A DNA stretch of 64,000 nt from Candidatus Multivoradales bacterium (GTDB taxonomy: Bacteria; Acidobacteriota; Thermoanaerobaculia; Multivoradales; J023): NCBI GenBank assembly GCA_965248925.1, contig CBDFLE010000006.1, positions 1,056,001 through 1,120,000 on the forward strand, read 5' to 3'. Positions 2,568-39,515 of this stretch are shown here, piece by piece. Position numbers and translations under genes: made by a program. The notes under the pieces were generated by a model. The model saw only the letters and a list, made by a program, of their open reading frames with translations. It was not told where the DNA came from and made no database searches. The number at the start of each line of letters is the position of its first letter. Within the stretch, counting starts at the first letter, position 1.

Positions 2568-2571
2568 CTAA

Positions 2572-2638
2572 GAATGCTGCAAAGCGTGATAAATCTAGAA
2601 AGGGCAAGAAGGCCAAGAAAAAGAAGGGGGATGGGTAA
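2572..2638 (+). pseudogene. Displaced native 3' end of the Rhs toxin (Lys-rich tail)
   Basis: Removing the IS and one CTAA copy restores the frame: ...TKYSK-NAAKRDKSRKGKKAKKKKGDG*, stop TAA at 2636-2638. Confidence 0.8.
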
Positions 2639-2751
2639 CGACACGGAACTTCTTCTGGTTTAGCGTGTTCTGTTGAGCTGCTTGGATCGATTGCATGCAG
2701 GCGAAGGTGATTTGCCAGGAGCTACAAGTAACGGCAATAAGGTGGTTAACG

Positions 2752-3279: not shown

Positions 3280-3482
3280 TAGTGCGTAGAATCGGGGGTT
3301 CGCTAGTGGGACTCCCGACTCTCAGCAGTCGCCGGTCTGGCGGGGCATGGAAATCTTCCGAAGAAGACAGCCTCGCACCCACTGGGAAACGCCCCGCCTC
3401 CCTCACAGCCCGCCGGCTAAGACGGCAACGGGTTTGCGCCTTCTTCGTTGTCGTCAATGCAAGAAGCAGCTGCCTGAAAGGA

Positions 3483-4187
3483 GATCTCGACTACATGCAT
3501 GCCCGGCATTGCAGTCCGCAGTTGGGGCGGTTCTTGAGTGTGGATCCAGCGGTGGGCAGCCGACTCTCCCCGCAAAGCTGGAATCGCTTTGCCTACGTGA
3601 CCAACAATCCGCTGAACTTCACCGACCCCTTCGGACTCCTCCCCTGTGGAAGCTGGGAGTGCGATGGTGTTATCGATGTAGTCGCCGACTTGCCGTCGCC
3701 GAGCGAGTACCTGACGCCCTTCCAAGCCGGTATCGAGTACGAGCTGTTCAAGCGCGAATTTCAGGCACGAAAGAACGGCGACTACCGAGATCCCAACCTG
3801 GCGATCATTCGCGCGGTTGCGGATCAGACGCGGTTCATTGCAGATATCGCCGAGACTGCCACAAGCCTGGTAGTCCCGACTAGTACCGCGGAGCTAGGAA
3901 CCGAGCCGGTGTTTGCGATAATCCCGGGGCCGGTTGACAACATCCTTGGGAGGGCGGCCAAAGGGGGGAGGGCGGCAAGGAAGGGGGTGAGGTCAGCTAA
4001 GCAAACCAAGCTCTCGATTAAGAGATCTGAAGAGGATTTACGTCGCAACAAAGAGTTTCGCCGCTGGTTTCACCGCGAATTCAAACCTAGCCAGAGACAT
4101 TCAAGAGGGCCTCGAAGAAATCCTGAACTCTCAGGAGAGCAGGTTCTTGAGGCTTATGACGAATGGCGGAAACTAGGAGGGCAATGA
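3483..4187 (+). CDS. Orphan Rhs C-terminal toxin module (short core remnant plus basic toxin tip, no proper start)
   Basis: DLDYMHARHCSPQLGRFLSVDP is identical in protein to the segment starting at 402; NPLNFTDPFGL core end; different tip ending FRRWFHREFK...EAYDEWRKLGGQ. Confidence 0.82.
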   Translation, partial: DLDYMHARHCSPQLGRFLSVDPAVGSRLSPQSWNRFAYVTNNPLNFTDPFGLLPCGSWECDGVIDVVADLPSPSEYLTPFQAGIEYELFKREFQARKNGDYRDPNLAIIRAVADQTRFIADIAETATSLVVPTSTAELGTEPVFAIIPGPVDNILGRAAKGGRAARKGVRSAKQTKLSIKRSEEDLRRNKEFRRWFHREFKPSQRHSRGPRRNPELSGEQVLEAYDEWRKLGGQ

Positions 4188-4576
4188 TGTATACGGTTAT
4201 CCGATTTACGTCAAACTCTGTGACGCAGAGTGTGTATGAGTGCATCGGATCGGAAGTGAATAGTGTTTTTCCCGGCGCTTACAACGGGCTGCGCCGGGCC
4301 GGTGACGGATTTGTTTGCGTCGTCTCCAGCTCCGACAGCTGGGCAGATCATCGTGCCGCAATCCTGGAGTTTATTCGTGCTGGCCGATTAGCAATATCGA
4401 ATGCACAGCACTTGAACGTTGATGTCAGTTTCGATGTTGCCATCGAGCCGGAGGATTTCTCCGAAACGAACGCCTTGTCAGTCTATGTCGATCCTGAGCT
4501 TAGCAAAGGTCTTACTATGATGGCCGTGTGTCTCGAACTCTCCGTCTATGGAGGTACTTCTGGTAACGACGGGTGA
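4184..4576 (+). CDS. Putative immunity protein (DUF4279-like) for the orphan Rhs tip
   Basis: ATGA overlap with the toxin stop; small, low-GC, acidic; C-terminal pattern VSFDVAI...LSVYVDPELSKGL..MAVCLELSVY. Confidence 0.65.
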   Translation: MMYTVIRFTSNSVTQSVYECIGSEVNSVFPGAYNGLRRAGDGFVCVVSSSDSWADHRAAILEFIRAGRLAISNAQHLNVDVSFDVAIEPEDFSETNALSVYVDPELSKGLTMMAVCLELSVYGGTSGNDG

Positions 4577-24671: not shown

Positions 24672-25270
24672 GGTGACACCTGCTTCATCGCCAGCCCCGC
24701 GGAGTCTGCGATGAGCCGTAGGTCCAACCGACGCACCAGCTCACGGCGGGCGCGATTGAGACGTGACTTGAGGGTGCCGCTGGGCACCTCCAAAAAAGCA
24801 GCCATCTCGTCGTAGGCCAGACCTTGGAGATCGCGCAGAGTCAGGACCAAGGCTAGCTGCTCTGGGAGTTCTGCCAGCACGCTCGCCACCAGGTCTCGAC
24901 GCTCGCGACGCTCCGCGCGAGCGGCCGAATCGTCGCTTGCCGGCATTCGCGCCAGGGCTTCCTCTCCAGCCGTCTCTGCCAATTGCCGAGCCCGGCCGCG
25001 GCGATAGAGATCGATGCACAGATTGCGCGACAGCCGCAGAGCCCAAGCCACCAAGGGAACCTCGCCCCGGTAGCGACCCAGCTGGCTGAAGAGCTTGAGG
25101 AAGATCTCCTGGGTCAGATCCTCAGCCTCCGCCGGCTGGCGAGCAAAGCGAAAGGCCAAGTTGTAGATCCGTTCACCGAAGCGCTCGACAATCTGATCCC
25201 AGGCGGCAGCGTCGCCGCGCGCCGCGCGCCGCGCCAGGAAAAGATCGGGGGAATGAGTACTCGATGCCAT
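24665..25270 (-). CDS. ECF RNA polymerase sigma factor
   Basis: AEDLTQEIFLK, W..RLSRNLCID, LRDLQGLAYDEMA..L.VPSGTLKSRLNRAR. Confidence 0.95.
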   Translation of the reverse strand: MASSTHSPDLFLARRAARGDAAAWDQIVERFGERIYNLAFRFARQPAEAEDLTQEIFLKLFSQLGRYRGEVPLVAWALRLSRNLCIDLYRRGRARQLAETAGEEALARMPASDDSAARAERRERRDLVASVLAELPEQLALVLTLRDLQGLAYDEMAAFLEVPSGTLKSRLNRARRELVRRLDLRLIADSAGLAMKQVSPC

Positions 25271-25497
25271 CTCACACCCTAAGACGCAGCGCCGCGGAAA
25301 AAAGTTCGCGCCATGCGATCAGCCATTCTCGGGGGAGCAGCTGCTCAGCTGCTAGGTCGAGGAGCCTCCCTTTCGACATCTCGCCCAGCCCTGCGCTGCC
25401 CGGAGATCGACCTCGCTTTCGCCCCCGGCACTGAGGTCAGAACGCCACCGTCCGGCGAGCCGCTTCCAAGTCGCCACCGCAATATTGGTCTTGGCGC

Positions 25498-27465
25498 TCA
25501 GAGATTCCCCACCATCAACTCCGCCACCAGCTGGTTGAACTTGGCCGGCTGGTGAAGATCGGAGCCTTCGGCCAGCAGACCGTAGCCGAGTAGCAGGTGG
25601 GCGGCATCGGCCAGCTTGCTGTCGCCCGAATCGGCGAGCAGGCGCTGATGCAGCTTGAAGACCAACTCGTGCTTGGGATTGAGCTCCAAGATGCGCTTCT
25701 GCCGCGGCATCGCGGAGCCCTCGGCTTCACGCATCAAGCGTTCGAGCTGCGGACTCATGTCGAACTCTCCACCCACCAAGCAAGCGGGCGAGGTGGTCAG
25801 GCGGGTCGATAGACGAACTTCACTGACCCAGTCATCAATCGGCTTCTGTAAGGCGCTGAGCAGGTCGCCGAACTCTTCCTGTTTTTCCTTGAGGGCTTCT
25901 TCGGCCTCTTTCTTCTCTTCTTCGGTGCCCAACTCGACGGTACCTTTGCCAACCGACCTGAGCCTCTTACCGTCGTGTTCAGGGAGGCTCTGCACCCACA
26001 TCTCGTCGACCGGATCGACCAGGTAGAGCACTTCGTATCCCTTGGACTGGAAGGCCTCCAAATGGGGCGACTCCTCGACCACCGAACGCGATTCGCCGGT
26101 CAGGTAGAAGATCTCTTCCTGACCTTCCTTCATCCTCTCGACATACTCGTCGAGGGTGGTCAGCTTCTCGGCATCGGCCGAACTTTGGCACAGCAACAGC
26201 GTTACCAGCCGGTCGCGGTTGTCGTGGTCGCTGCCGACCCCTTCTTTGAGCACGCGGCCGAACTCACCCCACAGCTTTAGGTATTTCTCGGGCTCGTCCT
26301 GGCGCAGCTTCTGCAGATGATCGAGCACCTTGCGGGTCAGCCATTTGCGCATCTGGGTCAGATGGCGGTCCTGCTGCACCAACTCGCGAGAGACGTTGAG
26401 CGGCAGATCGGCCGAGTCCACTACCCCGCGCAGGAAACGCAGGTAGCTCGGCAGCAGCTCTTGGCAGGCGTCCTTGATCAGCACTCGGCGCACGTAGAGT
26501 TGCAAACCAAATTGCTGATCGCGGTAGTAGAGATCCCACGGCGCCTTGGAAGGTAGGAATAACAGGGCACGATATTCGATCCGCCCCTCGGCGCTCAGCG
26601 ACAGGTGGTCTAGGGGTTCGCTCCAATCGTGGGAGATGTGTTTGTAGAACTCGTCGTACTCTGAGTCTTCGACCTCGGCCGCCGGCCGGGTCCAGATCGG
26701 CTTCATCGAGTTCAGAGTCTTGTCTTCGACCACCACTTCGGTCTTTCCTTCGATCGGCTTGCCTTCTTCATCGAGTACCGGTTCTTGGCGCTCGTGCTTG
26801 ATGCGCACCGGATAGGCAACAAAGTCGCTGTAGCGTTTGACGATGCCTTCGAGAGTGGAGAATTCGGCGAAGTCGTCGAGACCGGCGTCGCGATCTACCT
26901 CTTTCAAGTGCAAGGTGATGGTGGTGCCGCGCAGGAAGCGACTGCCTTCGGCCAACGAGTAAGAGCCGTCGCCGGTCGACTCCCAGACAGTGGCATTCTC
27001 GTCGCCGGACCGCCGGGTGGTGACCGTCACTCGGTCGGCGACCATGAAGGCGCTGTAGAAGCCAACACCGAATTGGCCGATCAGCTCAGCCGCCGCGGTG
27101 GTCGATTTCGATTCTTTGATCTGCTGCATCAACTCGCGGCTGCCGGATTTGGCGATGGTGCCAAGGTTGGCAATCACCTCCTCGCGGTTCATGCCGATCC
27201 CGTTGTCGAGAATCCTCAGGGTGCGGGCCTGGGAATCGGCTTCGAGACGGATCTCGAGCTCTTCGTCTTGCTCCAGGATGCCGGGCTCGGTGAGGGCCTC
27301 GAAACGCAACCGATCGAGAGCGTCGGAGGAGTTGGAGATCAACTCGCGGAGGAAGATCTCTTTGCTGGAGTACAGCGAGTGAATGACAATATCGAGCAGC
27401 TGCCGGGCTTCGGCCTGAAATTGATGCGACTCGGTCTGCGGCGCTTCTTCGGTCTTGACGGTCAT
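25498..27465 (-). CDS. htpG: Molecular chaperone HtpG (Hsp90)
   Basis: FQAE..QLL....HSLYS.KEIFLRELISN, GTIAKSG, IGQFGVGFYS, DLPLNVSRE, LELNPKH; ATG 27465 after AAGGA. Confidence 0.98.
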   Translation of the reverse strand: MTVKTEEAPQTESHQFQAEARQLLDIVIHSLYSSKEIFLRELISNSSDALDRLRFEALTEPGILEQDEELEIRLEADSQARTLRILDNGIGMNREEVIANLGTIAKSGSRELMQQIKESKSTTAAAELIGQFGVGFYSAFMVADRVTVTTRRSGDENATVWESTGDGSYSLAEGSRFLRGTTITLHLKEVDRDAGLDDFAEFSTLEGIVKRYSDFVAYPVRIKHERQEPVLDEEGKPIEGKTEVVVEDKTLNSMKPIWTRPAAEVEDSEYDEFYKHISHDWSEPLDHLSLSAEGRIEYRALLFLPSKAPWDLYYRDQQFGLQLYVRRVLIKDACQELLPSYLRFLRGVVDSADLPLNVSRELVQQDRHLTQMRKWLTRKVLDHLQKLRQDEPEKYLKLWGEFGRVLKEGVGSDHDNRDRLVTLLLCQSSADAEKLTTLDEYVERMKEGQEEIFYLTGESRSVVEESPHLEAFQSKGYEVLYLVDPVDEMWVQSLPEHDGKRLRSVGKGTVELGTEEEKKEAEEALKEKQEEFGDLLSALQKPIDDWVSEVRLSTRLTTSPACLVGGEFDMSPQLERLMREAEGSAMPRQKRILELNPKHELVFKLHQRLLADSGDSKLADAAHLLLGYGLLAEGSDLHQPAKFNQLVAELMVGNL

Positions 27466-27534
27466 TGAGTGTCCTTCCTTGCGGGTCGTCGCACAGCGCT
27501 GCCCGGATCCGTGGGCAGCTGAGACTGTTTCGAG

Positions 27535-27560
27535 AAATGGGCGGCGAGGGCCCTGAAAAG
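27535..27560 (-). promoter_or_regulatory. Possible sigma-32-like heat-shock promoter of htpG
   Basis: Minus strand CTTTTC-N13-CCCATTT vs consensus CTTGAA-N13-17-CCCCATNT; the -35 match is weak. Confidence 0.3.
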
Positions 27561-27636
27561 TTGTTTGACGGTAGAACAAAACCTACCACTGGCGCTGTAT
27601 TATTCCCCCCTCCCTGATCCAACCTGAGGAAAAGCA

Positions 27637-27984
27637 ATGCTCGAGCTGATCTGCAAACGCACCTGAAGCACCTGTCGCAAGGCGGTCGCCTTGCTCGAAG
27701 AACACGGAGCTGAATACCGCTACCGTGAGTACACCCAAGAACCGCTCGATGAAACCGAGCTACGACGCGTGCTCACCCTGCTCGGTGTCGAACCGCAGCA
27801 GGTGTTGCGCCGCCGCGACCGCGCCTACGCGGAACTGGGTCTGACCGGCGAGGAATCCGCCGACCAGCTGATCACCCACATGGCTAGCCACCCGACCCTG
27901 CTGCAAAGGCCGATCGGCGTCCTCGGCAAGCGGGCGGTGGTCGGCAGACCGGTGGAACGATTGCTGGAGCTGCTACAGTCCTGA
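27637..27984 (+). CDS. ArsC/Spx-family selenoprotein, copy 1 (Sec at codon 10)
   Basis: GAGG RBS, ATG 27637, MLELICKRT-TGA-STCRKA; TGA (27664-27666) occupies the catalytic Cys position; HPTLLQRPI..GRP motifs. Confidence 0.88.
27677..27694 (+). promoter_or_regulatory. Bacterial SECIS hairpin, copy 1
   Basis: GCAAGGC-GGTC-GCCTTGC, perfect 7-bp stem with a G-initiated loop, starting 11 nt after the TGA. Confidence 0.82.
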
Positions 27985-28028
27985 GTCTTCGGCCCAGCGT
28001 CGGCAATCCACTGTGGAGATTCAAATCA

Positions 28029-28183
28029 AAGTCGTCAATAATGACGACTTAACGCCTTCTCTGACGATAAGTCGTCTAAAAAGACGACTTGGACTTGGAA
28101 ATGACAGTAGGCAGAAGATATGATTCGTAACACCTGACGACTTAGGGTCAATTCAGTCGATAAGTTGCCAGCCTGGTCGAGTT
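28029..28183. promoter_or_regulatory. Four palindromic operator-like boxes AAGTCGTC-N6-GACGACTT upstream of hipB
   Basis: Perfect at 28029-28050 and 28069-28090; degenerate at 28122-28143 and 28162-28183; two pairs with 40-bp spacing. Confidence 0.8.
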
Positions 28184-28187
28184 GTAG

Positions 28188-28529
28188 ATGATCACTAAAT
28201 ATTTGAGTGACGATGCCTTCCTAAGCAAACTTGGCGAGCGCCTTTGCCGCTACCGACTCCGACTTGGCCTAACCCAAGCGGCATTGGCCGACAAAGCGGG
28301 AATCTCGAAGCGCACCGTCGAACGCATCGAGGCGGGAAGCTCGGCCCAGCTGTCGAGCTTTATTCGCCTGTGCCGCGCACTCGACTTGCTCGACGACCTC
28401 GACCGCCTGGTCCCGGCGTTAGCCCTCAGCCCCATGGAGCAGCTGAAGCTGGGCGGCAAGCAACGCCGCCGGGCCTCATCTCAGCCACCAAGACCCCCTA
28501 CCAGCGCGTGGGTTTGGGGCGATAGTTGA
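28188..28529 (+). CDS. XRE-family HTH antitoxin (HipB-like)
   Basis: LGERL.RYRL..GLTQAALADKAGISKRTVERIEAG; SPMEQLKL..KQRRRAS; overlaps the hipA start. Confidence 0.9.
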   Translation: MITKYLSDDAFLSKLGERLCRYRLRLGLTQAALADKAGISKRTVERIEAGSSAQLSSFIRLCRALDLLDDLDRLVPALALSPMEQLKLGGKQRRRASSQPPRPPTSAWVWGDS

Positions 28530-29845
28530 CCACCAACGCGGAGGTTCGCCTCTGGGGCCGCACCATCGGTGCGGTTTCGTTGTCCGACGACTCAACCCAC
28601 GCAACTTTCGAATACGACCTCGAATTCGCTCACAGCGGCATCGAGATTGCACCGCTCATGATGCCGCTGGCAGCACGGCGGATCTATGCCTTTCGCGAGC
28701 TACCGACCAGAAGCTTTCACGGTTTGCCGGGTCTGCTGGCAGATTCCCTACCTGACCGATTTGGCAATGCCCTGATCGAGGCATGGCTGGCCTCCGTTGG
28801 CCTTCCGGCCGAGAAGTTCAATGCCGTTCAAAGACTGTGCTATGCCGGTTCTCGGGCAATAGGAGCCCTTGAGTTCGAACCCGCGGAAGGTCCCGAACCG
28901 CAGCGATCGACAGAGATCCAAGTAGCTGCTCTGGTCGAACTCGCCGCCGAGGCGGTGGCAGATCGAGCCCAACTCCGCGGCTCTTTTTCCGATACCTCCA
29001 AGCAAGCCGCGATTCAAGACATCCTACGCGTCGGCACCTCTGCCGGTGGTGCCCGAGCCAAAGCGGTGATCGCTTGGAATCCGCAAACCAACGAGGTCCG
29101 ATCCGGACAGCTCGATAGCGGTAGCGGCTTTGAACATTGGCTACTCAAATTCGATGGAGTCACGGGTGACCGCGACAAAAACTCTGACGATTCGCAGGGG
29201 TTCGGCACCCTCGAATACGCCTACTACCTGATGGCCCTGGCGGCCGGTATCGAGATGAGCGAGTGCCGCCTGTTCGAGGAGAACGGCCGGCGCCATTTTA
29301 TGACCCGCCGATTCGACCGGCCTGCCAGCGGTGACAAGCTACACATGCAGTCGCTAGGCGCGCTGGCTCACTACGATTTCTACCTGGCCGGTGCCTACTC
29401 TTACGAGCAAGCGCTGCTGGTTCTTCGCCAGCTCGGTCTCTCGACCCGCGTGATCGAACAGCAATTTCGGCGGATGGCGTTCAACATTCTGGCGCGGAAT
29501 CAGGACGACCACGTCAAGAATATTGCTTTCCTGATGGATAGGACGGGCACCTGGACACTCTCACCGGCTTTCGACCTCACCTACAGCTTCAACCAGCGAG
29601 GCGAGTGGACCTCGGAACACCAAATGACCCTCAACGGCAAACGCCGTGGGTTTACCCTGGACGATTTCCGTCAATGCGCCAAAACGGCCGCCATGAAACG
29701 AGGCCGGGCTGAGATGTTGGTGGAGGAAGTCCACTCGGCAGTCGAGCGATGGCCTGAATTCGCGAGCCAGGCTGGTGTCACAGAGTCTAGGCAGAAGAGA
29801 ATCCAAGAGCAGCATAGGCTCGCATTGCTCTCTTCGGGCCGCTGA
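28526..29845 (+). CDS. hipA: HipA-family kinase toxin
   Basis: AEVRLWGRTIGAV, DSLPDRFGN, GTSAGGARAKA, WLLKFDG, RRFDR, NQDDHVKN, LSPAFDL. Confidence 0.95.
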   Translation: MTTNAEVRLWGRTIGAVSLSDDSTHATFEYDLEFAHSGIEIAPLMMPLAARRIYAFRELPTRSFHGLPGLLADSLPDRFGNALIEAWLASVGLPAEKFNAVQRLCYAGSRAIGALEFEPAEGPEPQRSTEIQVAALVELAAEAVADRAQLRGSFSDTSKQAAIQDILRVGTSAGGARAKAVIAWNPQTNEVRSGQLDSGSGFEHWLLKFDGVTGDRDKNSDDSQGFGTLEYAYYLMALAAGIEMSECRLFEENGRRHFMTRRFDRPASGDKLHMQSLGALAHYDFYLAGAYSYEQALLVLRQLGLSTRVIEQQFRRMAFNILARNQDDHVKNIAFLMDRTGTWTLSPAFDLTYSFNQRGEWTSEHQMTLNGKRRGFTLDDFRQCAKTAAMKRGRAEMLVEEVHSAVERWPEFASQAGVTESRQKRIQEQHRLALLSSGR

Positions 29846-29855
29846 CAGAGCAGCC

Positions 29856-29920
29856 GATAACTCGCTAAAGATGACGAGTTATCCAAGACACTTCTTTCTG
29901 GTCACCAAGACTGACGAGTT
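29856..29920. repeat. Two further degenerate palindromic boxes downstream of hipA
   Basis: GATAACTCGCT-AAAGAT-GACGAGTTATC (29856-29883) and a half-conserved box ending GACGAGTT at 29920, 40 bp later. Confidence 0.6.
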
Positions 29921-29952
29921 GGCGCGCTGAGCCGCTCCCACCAAGGAAGTAC

Positions 29953-30516
29953 CTACCAACCGCCACAGATCCGGCGCACCTCGCGCTCTAGCAAGCTCAA
30001 CAGGGCGACGTCGGGCTTGACGTTGGGGCGCAGTTCGCCGACCAGTCCGGCCAACCTTTCGATGGCTTGGGGGTGCCGGGCGAGAAAGCCCTCGACCGCC
30101 GAGCGCGGCCGGCGAGCCGCTTCGGACACCGCCCACCGGGTGAGGTCGGCTTGGTGGTGGAAAAGGTCGAGCCCCATCGCCTTGGCCACCTGCCGCCGCC
30201 AACGACTCTTCGGGTCAGCCTTGGCCGCCCAACGGCGGATGCGATCGAGGCCCAAGCGCTCACCGAGGAGAAAGTAAATCTTGCCGACCCGCTCGAATTC
30301 CTCATCGGCAGCACGGCCAATGCGCACGATATCGCCACAGCAGGCCAGATAGTCGAGAGCCGAGATCTGCTGGCTGAGACGCCTAGGAACCTTGGCCGTC
30401 TCGAAACGCTTGCGCCGCCGACGCACCTCCGCGCGGGCTCTGGCCGGCAACAGATCCTCCAAGTTGTCGGCCAACCCACCAATCGCCGCGCGGTAGGCGT
30501 CAACGTGTTTGGACAC
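29953..30516 (-). pseudogene. Duplicated 3' fragment of NAD-glutamate dehydrogenase (partner 34707-35270)
   Basis: Last 187 codons nearly identical to the intact gene, with several substitutions; similarity stops abruptly at 30516. Confidence 0.93.
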
Positions 30517-30785
30517 CCGACTGTACCGCTCTTGCGCTCGTTTGCATTCCCTGCCTCGTAGCTACCCCGTACTCGAAGTCGCGCCCCGCAGCGCCGCTGC
30601 GAAGCCATGGACCAACTGGCCAACACCCTCACGCAATGTGCCCTCGAAACAGCTCTGGTCGACAGCCAAGTCAATGACCGCCGGTGAAATTTTTCGACGC
30701 CCGTTGTAACGAAGCCGGCCCATTTACGCCTATAGATACTGAAGCGATTCTCCGAAACCCGTGTCCGCGAAAGGAGCAAACCCCA

Positions 30786-31019
30786 ATGCCGAGCCATCAC
30801 CTCCCTCTTGCCCTACCGGTTCTTCTACTCACCGCCCTGCTCGCCCTGCCATCCCCAACCCAGGCTCTCGACCTGAGCTTCGACAGCCATGCGGCCACCG
30901 CCGTCGGCCTGGCGGCCGACACCCCGGTGGCCGATATCGAGTGCTGGTGTCTATGGGCTGCACCCTCGATCGCGAGGCGTTCACAAGCGCGCACGAAAAC
31001 ACAACCCGCTGAACCCTAA
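30786..31019 (+). pseudogene. Truncated exported protein (signal peptide plus short N-terminal piece)
   Basis: AAGGAG RBS; MPSHHLPLALPVLLLTALLALPSPTQA; GC and codon style change near 30935. Confidence 0.4.
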
Positions 31020-31160
31020 GGAGGAAACATGAAATGCGCTGACCAGCCTTAGGCGCTCCTTGTAAGTCCGTAGAAAAGCAAGCCGAGATCTGCTAGCGTT
31101 TCCCTCGCTATCTGATTTCGCGCTAGATGGACCGCGATAAACTCCCAATTGGAGGCATGA

Positions 31161-31802
31161 ATGATGAAAGTACTCCCTACCCTGGCCGCGATCCTCGGCC
31201 TTCTCTTCTCCACGATCGCCGCCGCGCAGCAAGTCGCCGGTGAGCTGCCAGGCCTTTCGTATAAGTACGATAAGCAGGAAATTCCCAAACATATCCTGTT
31301 GCATCATTTTTTCCTAGCCGTCCCGACTCAACTCGAGCATTCGGGATCGACTGAGGTTCTGCTCCAATCAATCAACCTCAAAGATCCTCGGGTGTCTTCG
31401 ATTCTCCTCGCCGCAGCCAACCGATATCTTGATATCGTAACAAATGGTCAACCGATGATTGTGCGTGAAACACAGGAAGAGGACGGCTCGACAACGGTTC
31501 TGAAATATGGAGATTCAAGTGCTCCGGATTCGATTGAGCTAGCCGGTCTGGTGGGTGATGCCAGGATACAAGCAAATCACGAGCGGTCTCTAGACCGAGT
31601 GCGACATCTTGCTGAGATCTATGCAAGCCTGGATCGGGATCTGAAGACCATAGGTCTCGATACGAGTGGAATTGACATCTATCTGGACCGAGACCTGCGT
31701 ATGAACACTTCTGTAACGAGCGACAAGCCGTTTCTAGTGGGTAGTTCTGTCTGGGAAGTCGCTGAAACTTTCGAACGTCATTTCGCAACCCAAGAACACT
31801 GA
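31161..31802 (+). CDS. Secreted hypothetical protein (213 aa), low GC
   Basis: GGAGG RBS; signal peptide ending IAAA/QQ. Confidence 0.75.
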   Translation: MMKVLPTLAAILGLLFSTIAAAQQVAGELPGLSYKYDKQEIPKHILLHHFFLAVPTQLEHSGSTEVLLQSINLKDPRVSSILLAAANRYLDIVTNGQPMIVRETQEEDGSTTVLKYGDSSAPDSIELAGLVGDARIQANHERSLDRVRHLAEIYASLDRDLKTIGLDTSGIDIYLDRDLRMNTSVTSDKPFLVGSSVWEVAETFERHFATQEH

Positions 31803-31818
31803 ACAAAGGAGGCTTGCT

Positions 31819-32238
31819 ATGCGAAAGATTCGAATAATCACCGTGGTGGCTCTTTGTCTTCCGGCCGCTTCCCAAGCCATTGCTATCTCGGTTACCGCCC
31901 AGGCAATGGCGCCCAATTGCTCCCTCGCAGTACAGGTACAGTTCATTTATACAGTAGAAGTTACAGGCACTATTCCGGCGATCTGGGCAACCGAGCCGAT
32001 TCGATGGCAGACTACTCACGACCTGTTCAACTGTATCCCTCACGTAGTTAGAAATATTACCTTCTGCTGTGTTAGCGATGGGAACAGTGCGATCCTGAAC
32101 AACTCCCACGAGGGCGTTCCATGCCCGGTTCGGGCCAGCTGCGAAACATTTGCGACGATTGGAGGTGGGCTGTTGCCGATCTTCTCGGACTCTGATTTCA
32201 GTAGCTGCAGAGAGCCGTGTTTGGATCCCTTCTTCTGA
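31819..32238 (+). CDS. Secreted Cys-rich hypothetical protein (139 aa), low GC
   Basis: AAGGAGG RBS; signal peptide ending SQA; 8 Cys in the mature region. Confidence 0.75.
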   Translation: MRKIRIITVVALCLPAASQAIAISVTAQAMAPNCSLAVQVQFIYTVEVTGTIPAIWATEPIRWQTTHDLFNCIPHVVRNITFCCVSDGNSAILNNSHEGVPCPVRASCETFATIGGGLLPIFSDSDFSSCREPCLDPFF

Positions 32239-32251
32239 TCCTCTAACCAAG

Positions 32252-32294
32252 GCTCGGTGGCGGCCGGACACTGCTTGCTCGGCCGCCACCGAGC
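32252..32294 (+). terminator. Strong hairpin after the two-gene cassette
   Basis: GCTCGGTGGCGGCCG-N13-CGGCCGCCACCGAGC, perfect 15-bp stem, weak U tail. Confidence 0.55.
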
Positions 32295-32299
32295 GGACT

Positions 32300-32750
32300 T
32301 GTCTACTCAACACCAACCAAGCCTGGATCCTCGGTACCTACTCGTACCAGACCACCGTCGACACCGGCGGCGCCACCTTGCGCCGTGACACCTGCTTCGA
32401 TTCCGCGACCGGCTTTTTGAAAGTGGAGCGGCTGCGCCAGGCCAACCCCTCGCCAAGCTCGGACGACGTGGTGCGCGCGATGAGCTACGTCCGCGATGCC
32501 GCGAGTAAGGTCGAAACCGTGGTCGAGCGCCATTTCGGCGGAGATACGGGTGCCGTGGCGGCGCCCGGCGACGTCTGCGCGCTGAATCCGGCGCACAACA
32601 CCAGCCACGTTGCCCTGGAGCACAAGTGGCGGTACGGCTCGGGCCGCTCAAGCCAATACTTGAAACTCGATGGCAGCCGCTTCCCCTTCTTCGAAGTGCT
32701 CCAGACGGTGGACCGGAACACCGGCTTGATCAGCGCGAGTACAGCCCCCT
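32300..32750 (+). pseudogene. Internal fragment of an Rhs/YD-repeat protein
   Basis: TCFDSATGFL..ER, SYVRD, EHKWRYG, VDRNTGLISAST are YD-repeat-like; no start and no core end. Confidence 0.55.
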
Positions 32751-33023
32751 TAGCGGCTGGCACCGCGCCGAAAACGTCCAAGCGATCGGCAAGCACTTCC
32801 TGCTCGACACCTGGCGCGACGCCATGATCTTCGTCGACTTCGTGCTCTTCACCGGCGAGCGGCTGGCCATCACCCCGCGAATCGTCATCGTCGGCCGCCG
32901 GCTCAGTGTCCAGATCGGACCCCGACCCCCAGCCAGCCTGAACAGCAGGCATTTCGAATATGCCCACTCCCTCGACCTCCCATGCGGATCCGGCGAAGAA
33001 ACCCTGAGGTCGCTGGAGCCCTC

Positions 33024-33065
33024 CCTCCGGGCCGGGCCTCTCTCCCGGCCCGGAGGCTCTTTTTT
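33024..33065 (+). terminator. Rho-independent terminator
   Basis: CCTCCGGGCCGGG-N7-CCCGGCCCGGAGG followed by CTCTTTTTT. Confidence 0.75.
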
Positions 33066-33089
33066 CACCCGGTCAGACCCTCACCCGAC

Positions 33090-33360
33090 GGAAAAGGTGC
33101 CAGGCACATTATCGGCCGGCGGAAAAGGTGCCGGCGGAAAAGGTGCCAGGCACATTATCCGGAAAAGGTGCCAGGCACATTATCGGGCACATTATCGGCG
33201 GAAAAGGTGCCAGGCACATTATCCGGAAAAGGTGCCAGGCACATTATCGGGCACATTATCGGCGGAAAAGGTGCCAGGCACATTATCGGCGGCGGCGATT
33301 GGCGGCGGAAAAGGTGCCAGGCACATTATCGGCGGGCACATTATCGGCGGCGGCGATTGG
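33090..33360. repeat. Irregular tandem array of an imperfect palindrome GGAAAAGGTGCCAGGCACATTATC(C)
   Basis: 7 full copies (33090, 33136, 33161, 33200, 33225, 33264, 33307) plus half copies; no unique spacers. Confidence 0.95.
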
Positions 33361-34005
33361 CCGATCCGGCTCCCAGCTACTTTGAAGCCGATCTGGTCGC
33401 GCACTGTGGCGGGTCGATGGCCGGCAGCTTCGTGCATAGCTTCGTCTTGACCGACATCGAAAGCGGTTGGACCGAGGTCGTTCCTCTGTTACTTCGCGAG
33501 CAGGGGCTGGTAACCGTGGCCCTCGACCCATTCAGTGGGCGACTGCCGGTGACGCTATGGGACCTCGACACAGACAATGACAGCGTCTTCATCAACGGCA
33601 CATTGGTGCGGTACTGCGCCCGTCACCAAATCGAGCAAACCCGTTCGCGTGCTTACCGCAAGAAGGATCAAGCGTGGGAGGAGCAAAAGAATGGCTCCGT
33701 GGTGCGACGTCTCGACGGCTACGGCCGCTTCTCCGGAATGGCGTCGGCTCATTCCCTGGCTCGGTTGTTCAATATCGCGCGCCTCTACGTGAACTTCTTC
33801 CAGCCGTCGTTCAAACTCCGAGACAAAACTCGAGTCGGTGCTAAGGTGAACCGTCGGTCCTTCGCGCCAGCGACGCCGTGTGAGCGGCTCCTTGCCCATG
33901 CCACCGTTACCGAAGAAACCAAAGCTCGACTGAGACGGTGCAGAGACGAACTCGATCCCGTCAACTTGATCAAGGGGATTCGCGACGCGCAGGCCGACCT
34001 TGCCC
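33352..34005 (+). pseudogene. Integrase-core (rve/DDE) transposase fragment, ISNCY-like, truncated at both ends
   Basis: FEADLVAHCG, LTDIESGWTE, DTDNDSVFIN, TRSRAYRKKDQA..EQKNG..VRR, NFFQPS.KL, TPCERLL. Confidence 0.85.
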
Positions 34006-34114
34006 GGTAAAGGTGCCAGGCACATTATCGGCGGTAAAGGTGCCGGTAAAGGTGCCAGGCACATTATCGGTAAAGGTGCCAGGCACATTATCGGCGGTAG
34101 GCACATTATCGGCG
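34006..34114. repeat. Second array of the palindromic repeat (GGTAAAGG variant)
   Basis: 3 full copies of GGTAAAGGTGCCAGGCACATTATC plus half copies, ending at the duplication breakpoint 34115. Confidence 0.95.
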
Positions 34115-34562
34115 GTTTCGAGAAATGGGCGGCGAGGGCTCTGAAAAGTTGTTTGACGGTAGAACAAAACCTACCACCGGCGCTGTAATATTCCCCCCTC
34201 CCTGATCCAACCTGAGGAAAAGCAATGCTCGAGCTGATCTGCAAACGCACCTGAAGCACCTGTCGCAAGGCGGTCGCCTTGCTCGAAGAACACGGAGCTG
34301 AATACCGCTACCGTGAGTACACCCAAGAACCGCTCGATGAAACCGAGCTACGACGAGTGCTCACCCTGCTCGGTGTCGAACCGCGGCAGGTGCTGCGCCG
34401 CCGCGACCGCGCCTACGCGGAACTCGGCCTCACCGGCGAGGAGTCCGCCGACCAGCTGATCACTCACATGGCTAGCCACCCGACCCTGCTGCAAAGGCCG
34501 ATCGGCGTCCTCGGCAAGCGGGCGGTGGTCGGCAGACCGGTGGAACGATTGCTGGAGCTGCT
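34115..34562 (+). repeat. Direct repeat copy A2 (partner 27527-27974)
   Basis: Begins GTTTCGAGAAATGGGCGGCGAGGGC, as at 27527. Confidence 0.95.
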
Positions 34563-34572
34563 GAACACCTGA
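34225..34572 (+). CDS. ArsC/Spx-family selenoprotein, copy 2
   Basis: ATG 34225, in-frame TGA 34252-34254, identical SECIS at 34265-34282. Confidence 0.88.
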
Positions 34573-34610
34573 GCTTCCGGCCTAGCGTCGACTGGCACCT
34601 CGGAATTCCA

Positions 34611-34642
34611 CCGGCAAGTCGTCAAGAGCGACGACTTGCCGG
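34611..34642. terminator. 13-bp inverted repeat between convergent arsC and gdh; contains a perfect hipB-type box
   Basis: CCGGC-AAGTCGTC-AAGAGC-GACGACTT-GCCGG. Confidence 0.55.
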
Positions 34643-34706
34643 TCAAGAAGGCGACAACACGCCGATTGTGGCGAGTTAGCGCGCTGAGCGGCTCCCGCCA
34701 GACTCC

Positions 34707-37700
34707 CTACCAACCGCCACAGATCCGGCGCACCTCGCGCTCTAGCAAGCTCAACATGGCGACGTCGGGCTTGATGTTGGGGCGCAGTTCGCCGACCAGT
34801 CCGGCCAACCTTTCGATGGCTTGGGGGTGCCGGGCGAGAAAGCCCTCGACCGCCGAGCGCGGCCGGCGAGCCGCTTCGGACACCGCCCGCCGGGTGAGGT
34901 CGGCTTGGTGGTGGAAAAGGTCGAGCCCCATCGCCTTGAGCACCTGCCTTCGCCAACGACTCTTCGGGTCAGCCCTGGCCGCCCAACGGCGGATGCGATC
35001 GAGGCCCAAGCGCTCACCGAGGAGGAAGTAGATCTTGCCGACCCGCTCGAATTCCTCATCGGCAGCACGGCCAATGCGCACGATATCGCCACAGCAGGCC
35101 AGATAATCAAGAGCCGAGATTTGCTGGCTGAGACGCCTGGGAACCTTGGCCGTCTCGAAGCGCTTGCGCCGCCGACGCACCTCCGCGCGGGCTCTGGCCG
35201 GCAACAGATCCTCTAAGTTGTCGGCCAGCTCACCGATCGCCGCGCGGTAAGCGGCAACGTGTTTGGACACCTCGCGCGGTGAATCGCCATAGCGTAAGAA
35301 CCAACGAGTCGCCCGCTCGATCAAGCGGATCGAATGCAGGAATAGCTCCGCTTGCAGCTCTGCCGGTACCCGATTGTCGAGTTTCTCGATAGCCCCCCAA
35401 AGGCGACGAATGCGAAAAGCATCGCGAGCCGCGGTATAGGCCCGGGCAATGTCGGGCACCGGGAAGCCGGTGTCGCCGCGCAAGCGCTCGACAAAGGTGG
35501 GCCCGACCCGATTGAGCATGCTGTTGGTGATCGAGGTGGCAATGATCTCGCGCCGCAGCCGATGGCGCTCGGCGAAGCCGCGGAAGCGCTTGGCCACCGG
35601 CTGGGGAAAGTAGCGCAGTAGATCGCCCACCAGCTGCGGGTCGTCGGGTAGATCGGAACTGAGCAGTTCCTCGTAGACGTAGATCTTGGCATAGGCCAGC
35701 AACACCGCCGCCTCGGGCCGGGTGAGGCCGCGCTGCTGTTCTTCCCGCTCGGCCAGAGAAGCTTCGTCAGGCAAGCGCTCGAGCCGCCGATCTAGACGGC
35801 CAGCGCGCTCGAGCTGGAGCAGAAAATGGCGTTGCTCAGCCAGCAGCTCGGCTCCCTGGGCGATGGAGAGGGTCAGCGCCTGGCTCTGCAGGTAGTTATC
35901 GCGCAAGACCAAGGCCACGACCTCTTCGGACATCTCAGCCAGCAATTGATCGCGAGCCGCCTGATCGAGCTGCCCTTCAGCCATCGCCAAATCTAGGGCG
36001 ATCTTGATGTTGACCTCGTGATCCGAAGTGTCGACACCGCCAGAGTTATCGATGAAGTCAGTGTTGATGCAGCCACCGCCCATGGCGTATTCGATCCGGC
36101 CTGCTTGGGTCAGGCCCAAGTTGGCGCCTTCGCCGATCACCCGGCAGCGCAGCTCACTAGCATCGATCCGCACCGAGTCGTTAGCCCGATCGCCAACCTC
36201 AGTGTCGGTCTCCTGGCGTGCTTTGACATAAGTACCGATTCCACCAAACCAAAGCAGATCGACCGAGCAGCGCAGGATCGCCGAGATCAAGTCGTTGGGG
36301 GTCAGGCGGGTTTCGCTCAAACCCAACATCCGCTGAACTTCTGGCGACAGCTCAAGCCGCTTGGCGGAGCGCTCGAAAACCGCTCCACCGGCCGACAGCG
36401 CGCCTCGCTGGTAGTCACTCCAGGTCGAGCGCGGCAAGCGAAAAAGACGCTGGCGCTCAGCATAAGAAGGCTGCGGATCGGGATCCGGGTCGACAAAGAT
36501 CTGCAAGTGATTGAACGCCGCCAACAAACAGGTGTGCTCAGACAGCAACATGCCATTGCCAAAGACATCGCCCGACATATCACCGACGCCGATGGCGGTG
36601 AAGGGCTGCTTTTGAATGTTGTGGTCCAGCTCGCGGAAATGTCGCTTGACCGACTCCCAAGCACCACGAGCGGTGATGCCCATCGCCTTGTGGTCGTAGC
36701 CCACCGAGCCGCCCGAAGCGAACGCATCGCCAAGCCAGAAGTCGTACTCCCGTGCGATTTCGTTGGCCAGGTCGGAAAAAGCCGCCGTGCCCTTGTCGGC
36801 GGCCACCACCAGGTAGGGATCGGGGGCGTCCCGGCACACCAGCCGTGGAGGGGTCTCAATCCTCTCGCCACGACGGTTGTCGGTCAAATCGAGCAGGCCG
36901 CGAATCATCGTTCGGTAACAGCGTTTTCCCTCGGCCAGCAACTCCTCCCGACCACCGGAAGCAGGCGGCCGCTTGACCACGAAACCCCCTTTGGCCCCCA
37001 CCGGCACGATGACCGCGTTCTTGACGATCTGGGCTTTGATCAAACCCAACACTTCGGTGCGGAAATCCGCCGGCCGATCCGACCAGCGCACCCCGCCGCG
37101 AGCCACTAGGCCGCCACGCAAATGCACCGCCTCGACCGCCGGTGAGTAGACGAAGATCTCGAACTCAGGCCGCGGCTCGGGCAACTCGGCAATGCGCCGG
37201 GCCGCCAGCTTGAGCGACAGGTAGGACTTGGGACCGCCGTCCTCGGCAAACTGGTAGAAGTTGGTGCGCAAAGTCGCCGCGACGACACCGATCAAGGCCC
37301 GCAGGATGCGGTCCTCGTCGAGACTGAAGACCCGGTCGAGAGCCGCCCACAGCTGTTGCTCGAGCTGCTCGGCAAGCTGCTTCGCACTTTGCTGCCGATC
37401 CGGATCGAAGAGAGTCTCGAAGAGGTCCACCAAACCGCGGGTGACCTCACCATTGCGGAACAGGGTCTGGGCCATGTAGACCCGGCTGAAAGGCAGATTG
37501 GCTTGTTGCAGGTAGAGCACGTAGGCCCGCAGTACCAGCACCTGCCGCCAGTTCAAGCCGGTGCCCAGGACCAGCCGGTTGAGACCGTCGCTCTCGATCT
37601 CACCGCTCCACAGGCGACTGAAGGTGGCGACGAAACGGTGCTGGCAATCCTCGAGATCGACCTCCTGGCCGGCGATAACGAGTTCGAAATCGCGCACCCA

Positions 37701-39515
37701 AACTGGGTTGACGGCACCTGTCGGGCGCACCTCGAAGGGAATCTCGGCCAAGACCTTGAGCCCCAGATTCTCGAGCAAGGGCAGGAAGTCGGCCAGCGGC
37801 CTCGGCACCGCGAGTTCAAAGGTGCGCAACCTCAGTCGCGACGCCACCGCGCCCGGCCGGCGATAGAGTCGCAGCCCCAGCTGGCCCCGCCCCAGCACTT
37901 GCTCGATCACCGCAATGTCCTCCAGCGCCACTTCGGGTGAAGAGTGCTCCTGGTAGGAAGCGGAGAATGCCATGCCATAGCGCCTGAACACACCCAGGCC
38001 ACCTTCCTCGCCACCGGCGCCGACGAGCCGAGCCCGCAGCCGGTCGCTCCACGAACGCGCCGCTTCCAACAACCGCGCTTCGAGGCTCGGCAGGTCGATC
38101 TCCGGCAGTGGCCCCGACGGCAAGCGGAAGGTATAGTGCAGTTGCGCCAGCGGCAACTCAGAAATCCGCGCGCTGAACGAAGCCTGCTCGCCGGCGAAGG
38201 CTTGTTCGAGGATCTTGCCGATCCGCCGCCGCAGCTCCGTCGAATGCTGATCCCGCGGCACGTAGACGATCGAAGAAGCGAAACGCTCCAACTCGTCGTA
38301 GCGCACCAGTAGGATCACCCGCGGCCGCAAATGCAAACGCAAGATGCGGCGAGCAAAATGGTAGAGATCGTCCTCGGAGATTTGAAAGAGTTCGTCCCGA
38401 GGATAGAACTCCACCACATGCTTGAGCAGCTTGGCGTCGTGGCTGGCCGGCGGCAACGCCGCGCGCTCGATCACCCGCGCCGCCTTCAGCCGCACCAGCG
38501 GTATTTCACCCGAGGGGATGGCGTAGGCCATCGAGGTGAAAAGCCCCAACATACGGTACTCGCCGATCAGCTGGCCATCGGCGGCGAAGCGCTTGAGTGA
38601 AATCACGTCCATGTGCACCGGCCGATGGACGGTGGCGGGGTGATTTGACTTCGAAACCATCACCAAGCGGTCACTATCGAGAAAACGGGCCGCCAACTGG
38701 CCCAAGGGCTGCTCGCTGCGGGCTCGGGCTTCGAGAGAGACATGCCGCCGCACGCCGAGGCCGGATTCGGCCACCGGCCGCAGAAAGCGCTGCTCGCCAT
38801 CACTGGCCAGCCGATACTCACGATAGCCGAGGAAGGTGAAATGGTCGGCCGTCACCCAGACCAAGAAGGCGCGGGTCTCAGCCACCTCGGCGGCGGGCAC
38901 CGGCGGCGGCTGGGCGTCGAACTCACTCAGCAGGTGCTCGGCCGCTCGACGCATCAGCGGCCAATCGTCGACCGCTAGGCGAACCTCGTCGAGGATCTTG
39001 CACAGAGCGGTCTCAAGTTCTACCAGCGGCGCCTTCTGGGTCAGCTGATCGACCTGCAGGTGGATCAGCGACTCCCGGTCACCCTCGGCAGCGATCTCCT
39101 GCAATCGACCGTCGCTATCGCGGCGCACACCGAGCTGCGGGTGGACCATGAAATGCACCGCCAAATCACGCCGCGCCAACTCGCCAGTCACCGAGTCGAC
39201 CAGGAAGGGCATGTCGTCGTTGACCATCTCGATCACCGTATGGTCGCTCGACCAACCATGCTCCTGTTGGGTTGGGTTGTAAATCCGTACCGACGCCCGG
39301 CGCGGCTGGCGCGCGCGACCGAGTCGAAAATGACAGAGCACGGCGCCGCAAAGATCTGCGGTCTCCATGCCCTCGAGGTCTTCCACCTCTACGTGGGCGA
39401 AAAAGCGTCGGGCATAGCTCTCTGCCAGATTCCGCTCCGGCTCTTCGGTACGCTGCCGCAGCAGGCCGAGAATCGCCTCCAGGACCTGGTTCATCGTTCG
39501 CTGTCGAGATTTCAT
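34707..39515 (-). CDS. gdhB: Large NAD-specific glutamate dehydrogenase
   Basis: 1602 aa; DDMPFLVDSV, HLRGG.VARGGVRWSDR, KNAVIVPVGAKGGF, YLVVAADKGTA, GYDHKAMGITARGAWESV, GDMSGDVFGNGML. Confidence 0.97.
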   Translation of the reverse strand: MKSRQRTMNQVLEAILGLLRQRTEEPERNLAESYARRFFAHVEVEDLEGMETADLCGAVLCHFRLGRARQPRRASVRIYNPTQQEHGWSSDHTVIEMVNDDMPFLVDSVTGELARRDLAVHFMVHPQLGVRRDSDGRLQEIAAEGDRESLIHLQVDQLTQKAPLVELETALCKILDEVRLAVDDWPLMRRAAEHLLSEFDAQPPPVPAAEVAETRAFLVWVTADHFTFLGYREYRLASDGEQRFLRPVAESGLGVRRHVSLEARARSEQPLGQLAARFLDSDRLVMVSKSNHPATVHRPVHMDVISLKRFAADGQLIGEYRMLGLFTSMAYAIPSGEIPLVRLKAARVIERAALPPASHDAKLLKHVVEFYPRDELFQISEDDLYHFARRILRLHLRPRVILLVRYDELERFASSIVYVPRDQHSTELRRRIGKILEQAFAGEQASFSARISELPLAQLHYTFRLPSGPLPEIDLPSLEARLLEAARSWSDRLRARLVGAGGEEGGLGVFRRYGMAFSASYQEHSSPEVALEDIAVIEQVLGRGQLGLRLYRRPGAVASRLRLRTFELAVPRPLADFLPLLENLGLKVLAEIPFEVRPTGAVNPVWVRDFELVIAGQEVDLEDCQHRFVATFSRLWSGEIESDGLNRLVLGTGLNWRQVLVLRAYVLYLQQANLPFSRVYMAQTLFRNGEVTRGLVDLFETLFDPDRQQSAKQLAEQLEQQLWAALDRVFSLDEDRILRALIGVVAATLRTNFYQFAEDGGPKSYLSLKLAARRIAELPEPRPEFEIFVYSPAVEAVHLRGGLVARGGVRWSDRPADFRTEVLGLIKAQIVKNAVIVPVGAKGGFVVKRPPASGGREELLAEGKRCYRTMIRGLLDLTDNRRGERIETPPRLVCRDAPDPYLVVAADKGTAAFSDLANEIAREYDFWLGDAFASGGSVGYDHKAMGITARGAWESVKRHFRELDHNIQKQPFTAIGVGDMSGDVFGNGMLLSEHTCLLAAFNHLQIFVDPDPDPQPSYAERQRLFRLPRSTWSDYQRGALSAGGAVFERSAKRLELSPEVQRMLGLSETRLTPNDLISAILRCSVDLLWFGGIGTYVKARQETDTEVGDRANDSVRIDASELRCRVIGEGANLGLTQAGRIEYAMGGGCINTDFIDNSGGVDTSDHEVNIKIALDLAMAEGQLDQAARDQLLAEMSEEVVALVLRDNYLQSQALTLSIAQGAELLAEQRHFLLQLERAGRLDRRLERLPDEASLAEREEQQRGLTRPEAAVLLAYAKIYVYEELLSSDLPDDPQLVGDLLRYFPQPVAKRFRGFAERHRLRREIIATSITNSMLNRVGPTFVERLRGDTGFPVPDIARAYTAARDAFRIRRLWGAIEKLDNRVPAELQAELFLHSIRLIERATRWFLRYGDSPREVSKHVAAYRAAIGELADNLEDLLPARARAEVRRRRKRFETAKVPRRLSQQISALDYLACCGDIVRIGRAADEEFERVGKIYFLLGERLGLDRIRRWAARADPKSRWRRQVLKAMGLDLFHHQADLTRRAVSEAARRPRSAVEGFLARHPQAIERLAGLVGELRPNIKPDVAMLSLLEREVRRICGGW

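Follow-up and report, generated by a model that had tools for sequence, protein, structure and literature searches.

The nearest known counterparts of the toxin-antitoxin (TA) locus considered here are the hipBA modules of Escherichia coli and Shewanella oneidensis. Together with that of Caulobacter, these typify HipA clade I, which clusters with HipA of E. coli K-12 (Gerdes et al. 2021, PMC8262856). The S. oneidensis operator is given as GTGTA-N6-TACAC, occurring four times 34 bp apart, and the E. coli hipBA operators are given as separated by 10, 21 and 10 bp (PMC4150777). A review (PMC3920263, citing Lin et al. 2013) also places HipB sites of E. coli outside the operon, in the relA, eutH and fadH promoters. 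Here we describe a hipBA module in a 64,000-nucleotide stretch of Candidatus Multivoradales bacterium DNA (the window; C6:1056001-1120000 of a near-complete assembly in 6 contigs of a 7.98-Mb genome, 7,980,589 bp, with 62 % G+C). Like the modules of E. coli and S. oneidensis, it consists of hipB followed by hipA, with a helix-turn-helix (HTH) HipB, a HipA made up of Couple_hipA and HipA_C domains, and four palindromic operators upstream; unlike them, it carries the operator word TAATTCGTCATATATGACGAATTA (family consensus), arranged as two 40-bp pairs, with extra pairs downstream of the module and in a paralogous gap. We consider it moderately probable that the palindromic boxes of this locus are HipB operators and that the extra pairs are not dedicated recombination sites but remnants of a gain or loss of hipBA, long ago, via the operator repeats.

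The module comprises hipB (28188-28529, + strand; 113 residues), coding for an HTH antitoxin of XRE type with Pfam HTH_31/HTH_3 matches, and hipA (28526-29845, + strand; 439 residues), coding for the kinase toxin, with matches to Couple_hipA (E 1.8e-17) and to full-length HipA_C (E 1.1e-50, profile positions 1-213 of 213); the start of hipA overlaps the end of hipB by 4 nt. Three features by which hipBA is recognised, namely a two-domain HipA, a translationally coupled HTH gene upstream of it and repeated palindromic operators in the promoter, were found. On searching the window for AAGTCGTC-N6-GACGACTT with at most 3 mismatches, four matches were obtained (28029-28050, 28069-28090 and 34616-34637, all perfect, and 28122-28143 with 3 mismatches), where a shuffled window is expected to give 0.14 and none of 100 shuffles reached four. 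The perfect box occurs three times in the whole genome, each time at the hipBA locus or its duplicate.

Upstream of hipB, the box O1 (28029-28050, AAGTCGTC-AATAAT-GACGACTT; 27.4 bits) is followed after 40 bp by the equally perfect O2 (28069-28090; 24.9 bits). Nearer to the gene lie O3 (28122-28143, at about -64 of hipB; 17.2 bits), degenerate with 3 mismatches, and 40 bp after it the very degenerate O4 (28162-28183, core 28165-28180; 1.2 bits), assigned by its canonical -23 position and not by its score. All bit scores are from a matrix built on 214 operator sites of relatives, with the window left out. A promoter-like -10 hexamer (TATGAT, ending at 28124) overlaps the left edge of O3, and four promoter-like hexamers were found among the upstream boxes O2-O4 against 0.5 expected. 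Downstream of the module, Od1 (29859-29880, AACTCGCT-AAAGAT-GACGAGTT; 23.1 bits) starts 13 nt after the hipA stop codon and is followed after 40 bp by the weak Od2 (29899-29920, TGGTCACC-AAGACT-GACGAGTT; 8.6 bits). The third pair lies in the paralogous gap, where Ob1 (34616-34637; 16.5 bits) has perfect O-type arms and Ob2 (34656-34677; 16.7 bits), again 40 bp further, is a symmetric Od-like variant, AACACGCC-GATTGT-GGCGAGTT. In the Od-type variant (AACTCG...CGAGTT) the third base is exchanged in each of the two arms (AAC...GTT). All three pairs share the 40-bp phase, and both the Od and the Ob pair sit between convergent 3' ends, outside promoters. The first-pass annotation of this DNA had reported hipBA bracketed by its own box pairs; the four upstream boxes, the two downstream boxes and the 40-bp pairing were all recovered, but the downstream boxes carry a variant word and O4 is barely recognisable. 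Its 11-6-11 palindrome at 29856 was likewise traced, as an extension of Od1 by GAT...ATC (29856-29883), however with 2 mismatched pairs.

The identity of the boxes follows from the comparison with relatives. From genome and metagenome collections, 160 loci with HipA relatives (49-69 % identity) were gathered, belonging to Verrucomicrobiota, Planctomycetota, Proteobacteria, Acidobacteriota, spirochaetes and other phyla; the analysed set consists of the 144 loci in which hipB, as located by tblastn, precedes hipA in the same orientation, 16 being dropped. With at most 1 mismatch, the core TCGYCW-N4-WGRCGA occurs 214 times in the 35.3 kb upstream of hipB, spread over 91 loci, whereas the 33.8 kb downstream contain it twice and 239 kb of coding DNA four times. 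The positions of the core relative to hipB peak at -23, -63, about -100/-108 and about -140/-148, and core pairs 39-42 bp apart number 122 upstream, with none in 241 kb of coding DNA and none in 301 kb of far upstream DNA. The consensus of the matrix derived from the 214 sites is TAATTCGTCATATATGACGAATTA, and at 8 bits or more this matrix finds 346 sites in the 36.7 kb of promoter DNA of the relatives versus 3 in 237 kb of coding DNA; the third base of the box arm varies across the operator family. Since the same core, the 40-bp pairing and the positions are kept upstream of hipB in relatives of many phyla, and in view of the matrix scores, the boxes are very probably HipB-family operators, arranged upstream as two 40-bp-phased pairs, and the earlier designation of the boxes as HipB-type operators holds.

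The pairs outside the promoter are, as judged from the sequence, real operator-derived DNA, and they are rare. In the core-pair scan the sole downstream pair belonged to the window, and with the matrix a downstream pair was seen in 2 of 145 loci, that is, in the window and in one of the 144 relatives (L267, hipA 55 % identical; 29.5 and 11.8 bits, 41 bp apart). L267 is a metagenomic locus (2570-4400) in which the proximal pair alone precedes hipB and the two boxes of an operator-like pair stand 8 and 49 nt past the hipA stop codon, as if the unit were circularly permuted; its hipBA is followed by higB plus an HTH/M78 module. Whole-genome scans of five relatives with ATTCGYC-N6-GRCGAAT revealed no orphan operator pair in any of the five. 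Their AT-centred matches all lay at their own hipBA promoter (in G044 including two at contig ends, belonging to the same promoter), and two further single matches had GC-rich centres and no partner box. When the genome under study was scanned with the matrix, 12 sites reached 13 bits or more, six of them being O1, O2, O3, Od1, Ob1 and Ob2; the top match outside the locus (C5:307201-307224, 18.8 bits) has an exact O-type left arm and lies within possible open reading frames (ORFs) of 115-155 codons. Loose box pairs number 24 genome-wide, and box-type flanks occur only in the three at this locus; AACTCG-N10-CGAGTT gave six matches, of which only Od1 is at this locus and the other five are elsewhere. 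At least 112 stretches with the exact box were found in other genomes, about the chance number for a 16-base word (an estimate from the collection size, with no control run), and none of the 80 loci fetched from among these adjoins hipBA. One of these exact-box loci, L159, contains a weak HipA-like match of 26 % identity.

Such operator-derived DNA outside the promoter could have a function, with HipB or HipA-HipB occupying auxiliary or decoy sites (for looping, titration or blocking of convergent transcription), or with the palindromes forming hairpins, in RNA or in DNA, to terminate or stabilise convergent transcripts, those of hipBA in one case and of the ArsC-family gene versus gdh (see below) in the other. 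The family matrix gives Od1, Ob1 and Ob2 scores of 16.5-23 bits, and the arms of Ob1 are perfect while the 25 bp alongside show no significant similarity between the two copies of the locus. Ob1 is embedded in a perfect 14-6-14 palindrome (34610-34643) whose stem is longer than in all 311 promoter operators of relatives (maximum 13), where the perfect arms of O1 and O2, 9 each, rank in the top few per cent. On either strand, the gap that contains it gives a better fold than its shuffled versions (z -3.35 and -2.93). Perfect palindromes whose arms measure at least 13 recur in the genome (138 entries), Ob2 and Od1 have changed symmetrically in both arms, and E. coli HipB is itself reported to bind beyond its own operon (PMC3920263). 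A scan of 27900-30000 and 34500-34800, however, found no terminator-like site, strong stems being present without T-runs, including at Od1 and Ob1; at 3' ends there is no promoter to regulate; 143 of the 144 relatives do without a downstream pair and all five scanned genomes without an orphan one; and at about 10 % neutral divergence the retention of 16 of 16 arm bases is not improbable on its own. A functional role for the extra pairs is accordingly rated as rather unlikely.

The history of the extra pairs is bound up with a duplication. Locus A reads htpG (25498-27579, - strand, full), an ArsC-family gene (27637-27984, + strand; Pfam ArsC, with an in-frame TGA at codon 10), the four upstream boxes, hipB, hipA, the two downstream boxes and a 187-codon 3' fragment of the NAD-glutamate dehydrogenase gene gdh (29953-30516, - strand; partial Pfam GDH_C match), a copy of 34707-35270. 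Locus B, 6.6 kb further, reads an htpG 5' stub of about 53 nt (34115-34167, - strand; a copy of 27527-27579), a second ArsC-family gene (34225-34572, + strand; Pfam ArsC match), a 134-bp gap with two boxes, and the full-length gdh (34707-39515, - strand; 1602 residues, Pfam Bac_GDH_CD and seven further GDH domains). The labels arsC and gdh given earlier need qualifying to this extent, the former being an ArsC-family gene with an in-frame TGA and the gdh beside hipBA being only a fragment. Self-comparison of the window by BLAST pairs 27527-28002 with 34115-34590 (96.2 % identity) and 29912-30517 with 34669-35271 (95.1 %), and the interval separating these homologous flanks is 1909 bp in copy A versus 78 bp in copy B. 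Between the ArsC-family copies there are 12 differences in 348 nt (8 codons changed synonymously, 3 non-synonymously), and between the gdh fragment and the full gene 21 in 564 nt (13 codons synonymously, 7 non-synonymously; 96 % amino-acid identity).

The duplication spans about 1.1 kb, is interrupted by repeat-family DNA and has the gdh fragment and the htpG stub as its outer ends, so that copy A holds a full htpG and a gdh stub, and copy B an htpG stub and a full gdh. The DNA between the copies (30518-34114, 3.6 kb) is made up first of permuted pieces of a dispersed repeat, whose family is associated with RHS-repeat ORFs, and then of tandem-repeat arrays. Three pieces (30588-32286, 32308-32739 and 32743-33085) recur elsewhere at six or seven sites with 81-99 % identity; there they are ordered third, first, second, beside RHS-repeat ORFs, and the order in the window is a permutation of this. 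The duplication is the product of a rearrangement involving this dispersed repeat family. An assembly artefact, in which the sample was mixed and a haplotype carrying hipBA was assembled end to end with one lacking it, would account for copies that differ by 3-5 % throughout and are separated by dispersed repeats, where assemblers err. The copies are, however, truncated on opposite sides and have unique junctions to 3.6 kb of other DNA, unlike an assembly bubble, and the assembly is near-complete in six contigs, which leaves this possibility extremely improbable.

The gap of locus B had been proposed as the empty site matching the hipBA insertion. Its topology agrees with this, as it holds one pair in the same 40-bp phase (34616-34637 perfect, 34656-34677 variant), with a left flank leading to the ArsC-family gene as on the upstream side of hipBA and a right flank equal to the DNA after Od2, as had been observed earlier. 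The sequence does not agree: once the box arms and a 13-nt core of the spacer are set aside, identity between the gap and each end of the hipBA insert is only about 45 %, whereas the flanks are 96 % identical. Nor did the difference between the copies prove to lie precisely between box pairs: it is bounded by pairs, and copy B keeps one, and on the right the homology resumes within the right arm of the second box (Od2/Ob2), but on the left it ends 27 bp before the box and outside any box, and the 25-26 bp from this break to Ob1 show no significant similarity between the copies. Neither the 25 bp to the left of Ob1 nor the right part of the gap has a significant match in the hipBA insert, on either strand, or in the rest of the genome. 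When the spacer of the B pair is aligned with the reverse-complemented O1-O2 spacer, 12 of 13 positions agree (P about 6e-4, four comparisons), which ties the solo pair by descent to the distal operator pair.

The flanks have diverged, mostly synonymously, by about 0.1 per synonymous site (a rough estimate), from which orthologous neutral DNA in the gap would be expected to be about 90 % identical. With the observed value at about 45 %, a simple deletion from an A-like state or insertion into a B-like state after the duplication is excluded. The candidate of a clean recent excision site was rejected, the 78-bp gap being about 45 % identical outside the boxes versus 96 % in the flanks. The A and B gaps appear to be alleles older than their flanks indicate, which evolved separately; possible explanations of the mismatch between gap and flanks are that the alleles come from different lineages, that cassettes have turned over at a hot spot, or that the flanks have undergone gene conversion.

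In a further reading, successive or tandem modules occupied the site and the Od-type boxes (Od1, Ob2) are what remains of the operators of a second, older or tandem hipBA, with the site repeatedly undergoing gain, duplication and erosion. The boxes do fall into two classes, the O-type being perfect three times and the Od-type (Od1, the right arm of Od2, and Ob2) having both arms changed together; Ob2 is nearest to Od1 (15 of 22 positions), the gap DNA is much more diverged than the flanks, and a pair only 13 nt past the hipA stop codon, with a similar one in L267, is what a junction between two units would look like. Yet boxes are the only remains of such a unit, a tblastn search of the genome, where hipA is single-copy, gave no sign of another hipB or hipA, and the differing third arm base is variable family-wide and may not set specificity. 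We therefore regard this reading as improbable.

From the arm-6-arm geometry it had also been suggested that the operators double as cassette sites of a tyrosine recombinase. In this model the operator pairs are recombination sites through which hipBA excises and integrates by a Xer-like tyrosine recombinase or another site-specific activity, O1-O2 being attL, Od1-Od2 attR and the solo pair an empty attB. The topology agrees with this model, with a pair to the left of the module, a pair to its right and exactly one in the paralogous gap, all in 40-bp phase. L267, having only the proximal pair upstream and a pair after hipA, resembles a circular unit that was opened at another point; this hipBA type is also spread across many phyla, and Xer-flanked modules carrying TA pairs are reported from Acinetobacter plasmids. 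The arm-6-arm geometry is, however, that of the operator family itself, and 143 of the 144 relatives have boxes in the promoter only, which is the distribution that the first-pass annotation had named as contrary to its proposal; only one relative has a downstream pair. Within the genome the box encloses no other cargo (its 3 perfect copies and 6 of the 12 matrix matches being at the locus), none of the 80 exact-box loci elsewhere adjoins hipBA, and different cargo between box pairs was seen neither in the genome nor at those 80 loci. Amongst the 37 Phage_integrase (PF00589) matches of the genome none lies in the window, the nearest being about 115 kb away. The left homology break falls 27 bp outside the box, and the DNA adjoining the boxes differs between the filled and the empty site. 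Dif-type sites are 28 bp long with distinct XerC and XerD arms, and the arms of the boxes, unlike these, are identical inverted copies. The cassette model is considered very improbable.

A bolder variant, to which we attach only a small probability, is that the 40-bp-phased HipB operator pair itself is the recombination substrate that moves this widespread hipBA type in and out of chromosomes as a unit. Recombination between the upstream and the downstream pair may then excise a circle and leave a solo pair as a later landing site, and might be promoted by a bent, tightly bound HipA-HipB-DNA complex that stalls replication forks, or by a host recombinase. The window would show the left, right and solo states of the pair, and L267 would be a permuted unit. 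The solo pair may have persisted through continued binding of HipB, or may have been co-opted as a hairpin with a 14-bp stem between the convergent genes.

Under our favoured explanation, in which the extra pairs are relics, no dedicated site-specific recombinase would be involved. HipB, the HTH antitoxin, would act as autorepressor of the module, which sits between the ArsC-family gene and gdh. HipB dimers, and probably HipA-HipB complexes, are expected from position and conservation to bind the four upstream operators and so shut the promoter, while the downstream and solo pairs would be operator-derived DNA with no promoter role. The end points of the old gain or loss, of which the direction may have been either, would have fallen inside the repeated operators, the likely route being recombination or replication slippage between similar operator repeats in phase with each other, giving a solo pair much as a solo long terminal repeat (LTR) arises. 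Old alleles of one locus would then have been brought into one genome by the 1.1-kb duplication that is broken by repeat-family DNA.

Several observations weigh against this explanation. Ob1 keeps 16 of 16 arm bases within its perfect 14-6-14 palindrome, and Ob2 and Od1 have changed symmetrically (AAC...GTT), which together suggest selection or homogenisation of the palindromes in place of passive decay. The pair of L267, standing directly after the hipA stop codon, indicates that the arrangement may be more than an accident. The gap being only about 45 % identical, an assumption beyond simple gain or loss is needed. Furthermore, no close relative (of the same genus, or with hipA identity above 69 %) was found in any of the collections searched, which would have been needed to fix the ancestral state of the gap; a DNA search of 40 related genomes found neither a genome of the same genus nor a shared htpG-arsC-gdh order.

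The module itself looks foreign to its host and horizontally acquired, since the closest HipA within the same taxonomic family is 51 % identical, as against 66-69 % in other phyla. By sequence its HipA is only distantly related to the solved E. coli and Shewanella proteins. hipB scores 45 bits against TIGR03070 (couple_hipB), under the family cut-off, and HipA has only a sub-threshold match, to YjjJ, in NCBIfam. A phmmer search of the Protein Data Bank (PDB) with HipA matched three sequences at E of 0.001 or less, all of them HipT(Lp) or Legionella HipA_C proteins, the best at about 1e-13 and confined to the C-terminal half; neither E. coli nor Shewanella HipA was among them. The group of hipBA modules gathered here is newly delineated and widely transferred.

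Some neighbouring features deserve mention in their own right. In both copies of the ArsC-family gene (27637-27984 and 34225-34572) the in-frame TGA at codon 10 lies in a U-S-T-C motif, where relatives in the family have CxxC, and a hairpin (GCAAGGC-GGUC-GCCUUGC) follows after another 10 nt. The TGA and the hairpin are kept in 10 of 10 loci, comprising the own genome and nine related ones (L002, L003, L005-L009, L011, L012). With the TGA read as selenocysteine, the Pfam ArsC match becomes longer and a Glutaredoxin match is added; the genome carries a selenocysteine tRNA (tRNA-SeC) at C6:1930728-1930827. The gene is probably a conserved ArsC-family UxxC selenoprotein, present here in two intact copies.

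The dispersed repeat family has a unit of about 3.6 kb, with copies at C6:1048458-1052026, 2415896-2419465, 3279220-3283054, 4658714-4662669 and 4912156-4916129 and at C5:1074971-1077657; full copies encode ORFs with RHS-repeat and weak Pterin_4a matches, and the pieces in the window (30588-33085) are without the intervening segments. The tandem arrays (33086-33350 and 34005-34115) are built on a motif of 12-64 nt (GGTGCCAGGCACATTATCGG...), which is also dispersed in the genome, and have a unique stretch of 650 bp between them. The second array abuts the start of copy B, and like arrays occur at C6:1196879, 1206405-1206690 and 2177197-2177508. A scan of 25000-36000 with Rfam gave no family at the gathering threshold, tandem arrays included. 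Self-comparison of the window also showed a 65-nt direct repeat with 91 % identity (402-466 and 3483-3547).

The movement of chromosomal TA modules between genomes is poorly understood. If it is true that the operators of a module mark the end points of its gain or loss, this would point to fragile or recombinogenic operator repeats, and a solo pair would be a marker of past TA occupancy. For an uncharacterised, widely transferred group of hipBA modules, the comparison defines which operator word is conserved and how two operator pairs are placed at constant distances from hipB; the extra pairs are at present a curiosity.

A literature search on downstream or orphan hipBA operators returned nothing on the topic as judged by titles and the openings of abstracts, and no wider claim is made. 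With the E. coli sites reported outside the operon, the extra pairs of the window have in common that the antitoxin palindrome occurs beyond its own promoter; those sites, however, lie in promoters of other genes, whereas the orphan pairs of the window stand where the 3' ends of two genes converge and share descent with the locus of the module. The dif/pdif (XerC/D) modules of Acinetobacter plasmids, to which the cassette proposal has its closest known parallel, are similar in being small modules, including TA pairs, bracketed by short sites of arm-6-arm geometry. The pdif sites recur many times per replicon around varied cargo, but the box of the window is confined to one locus and one cargo and matches HipB operators, and the hallmark of Xer modules, a recurrent site with different cargo, is not displayed by it. 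An integron, marked by an integrase and attI beside an array of attC cassettes, is not indicated either, the stretch C6:1056001-1120000 containing no PF00589 match and only a single 'cassette' with no array. The solo LTR, like other scars left by deletion between direct repeats, offers a further likeness, in that a unit lies between two similar repeats and the paralogous site keeps a single repeat; it differs in that the repeats of the window are operator pairs of 62 bp, only about half identical, which do not represent a recent clean product.

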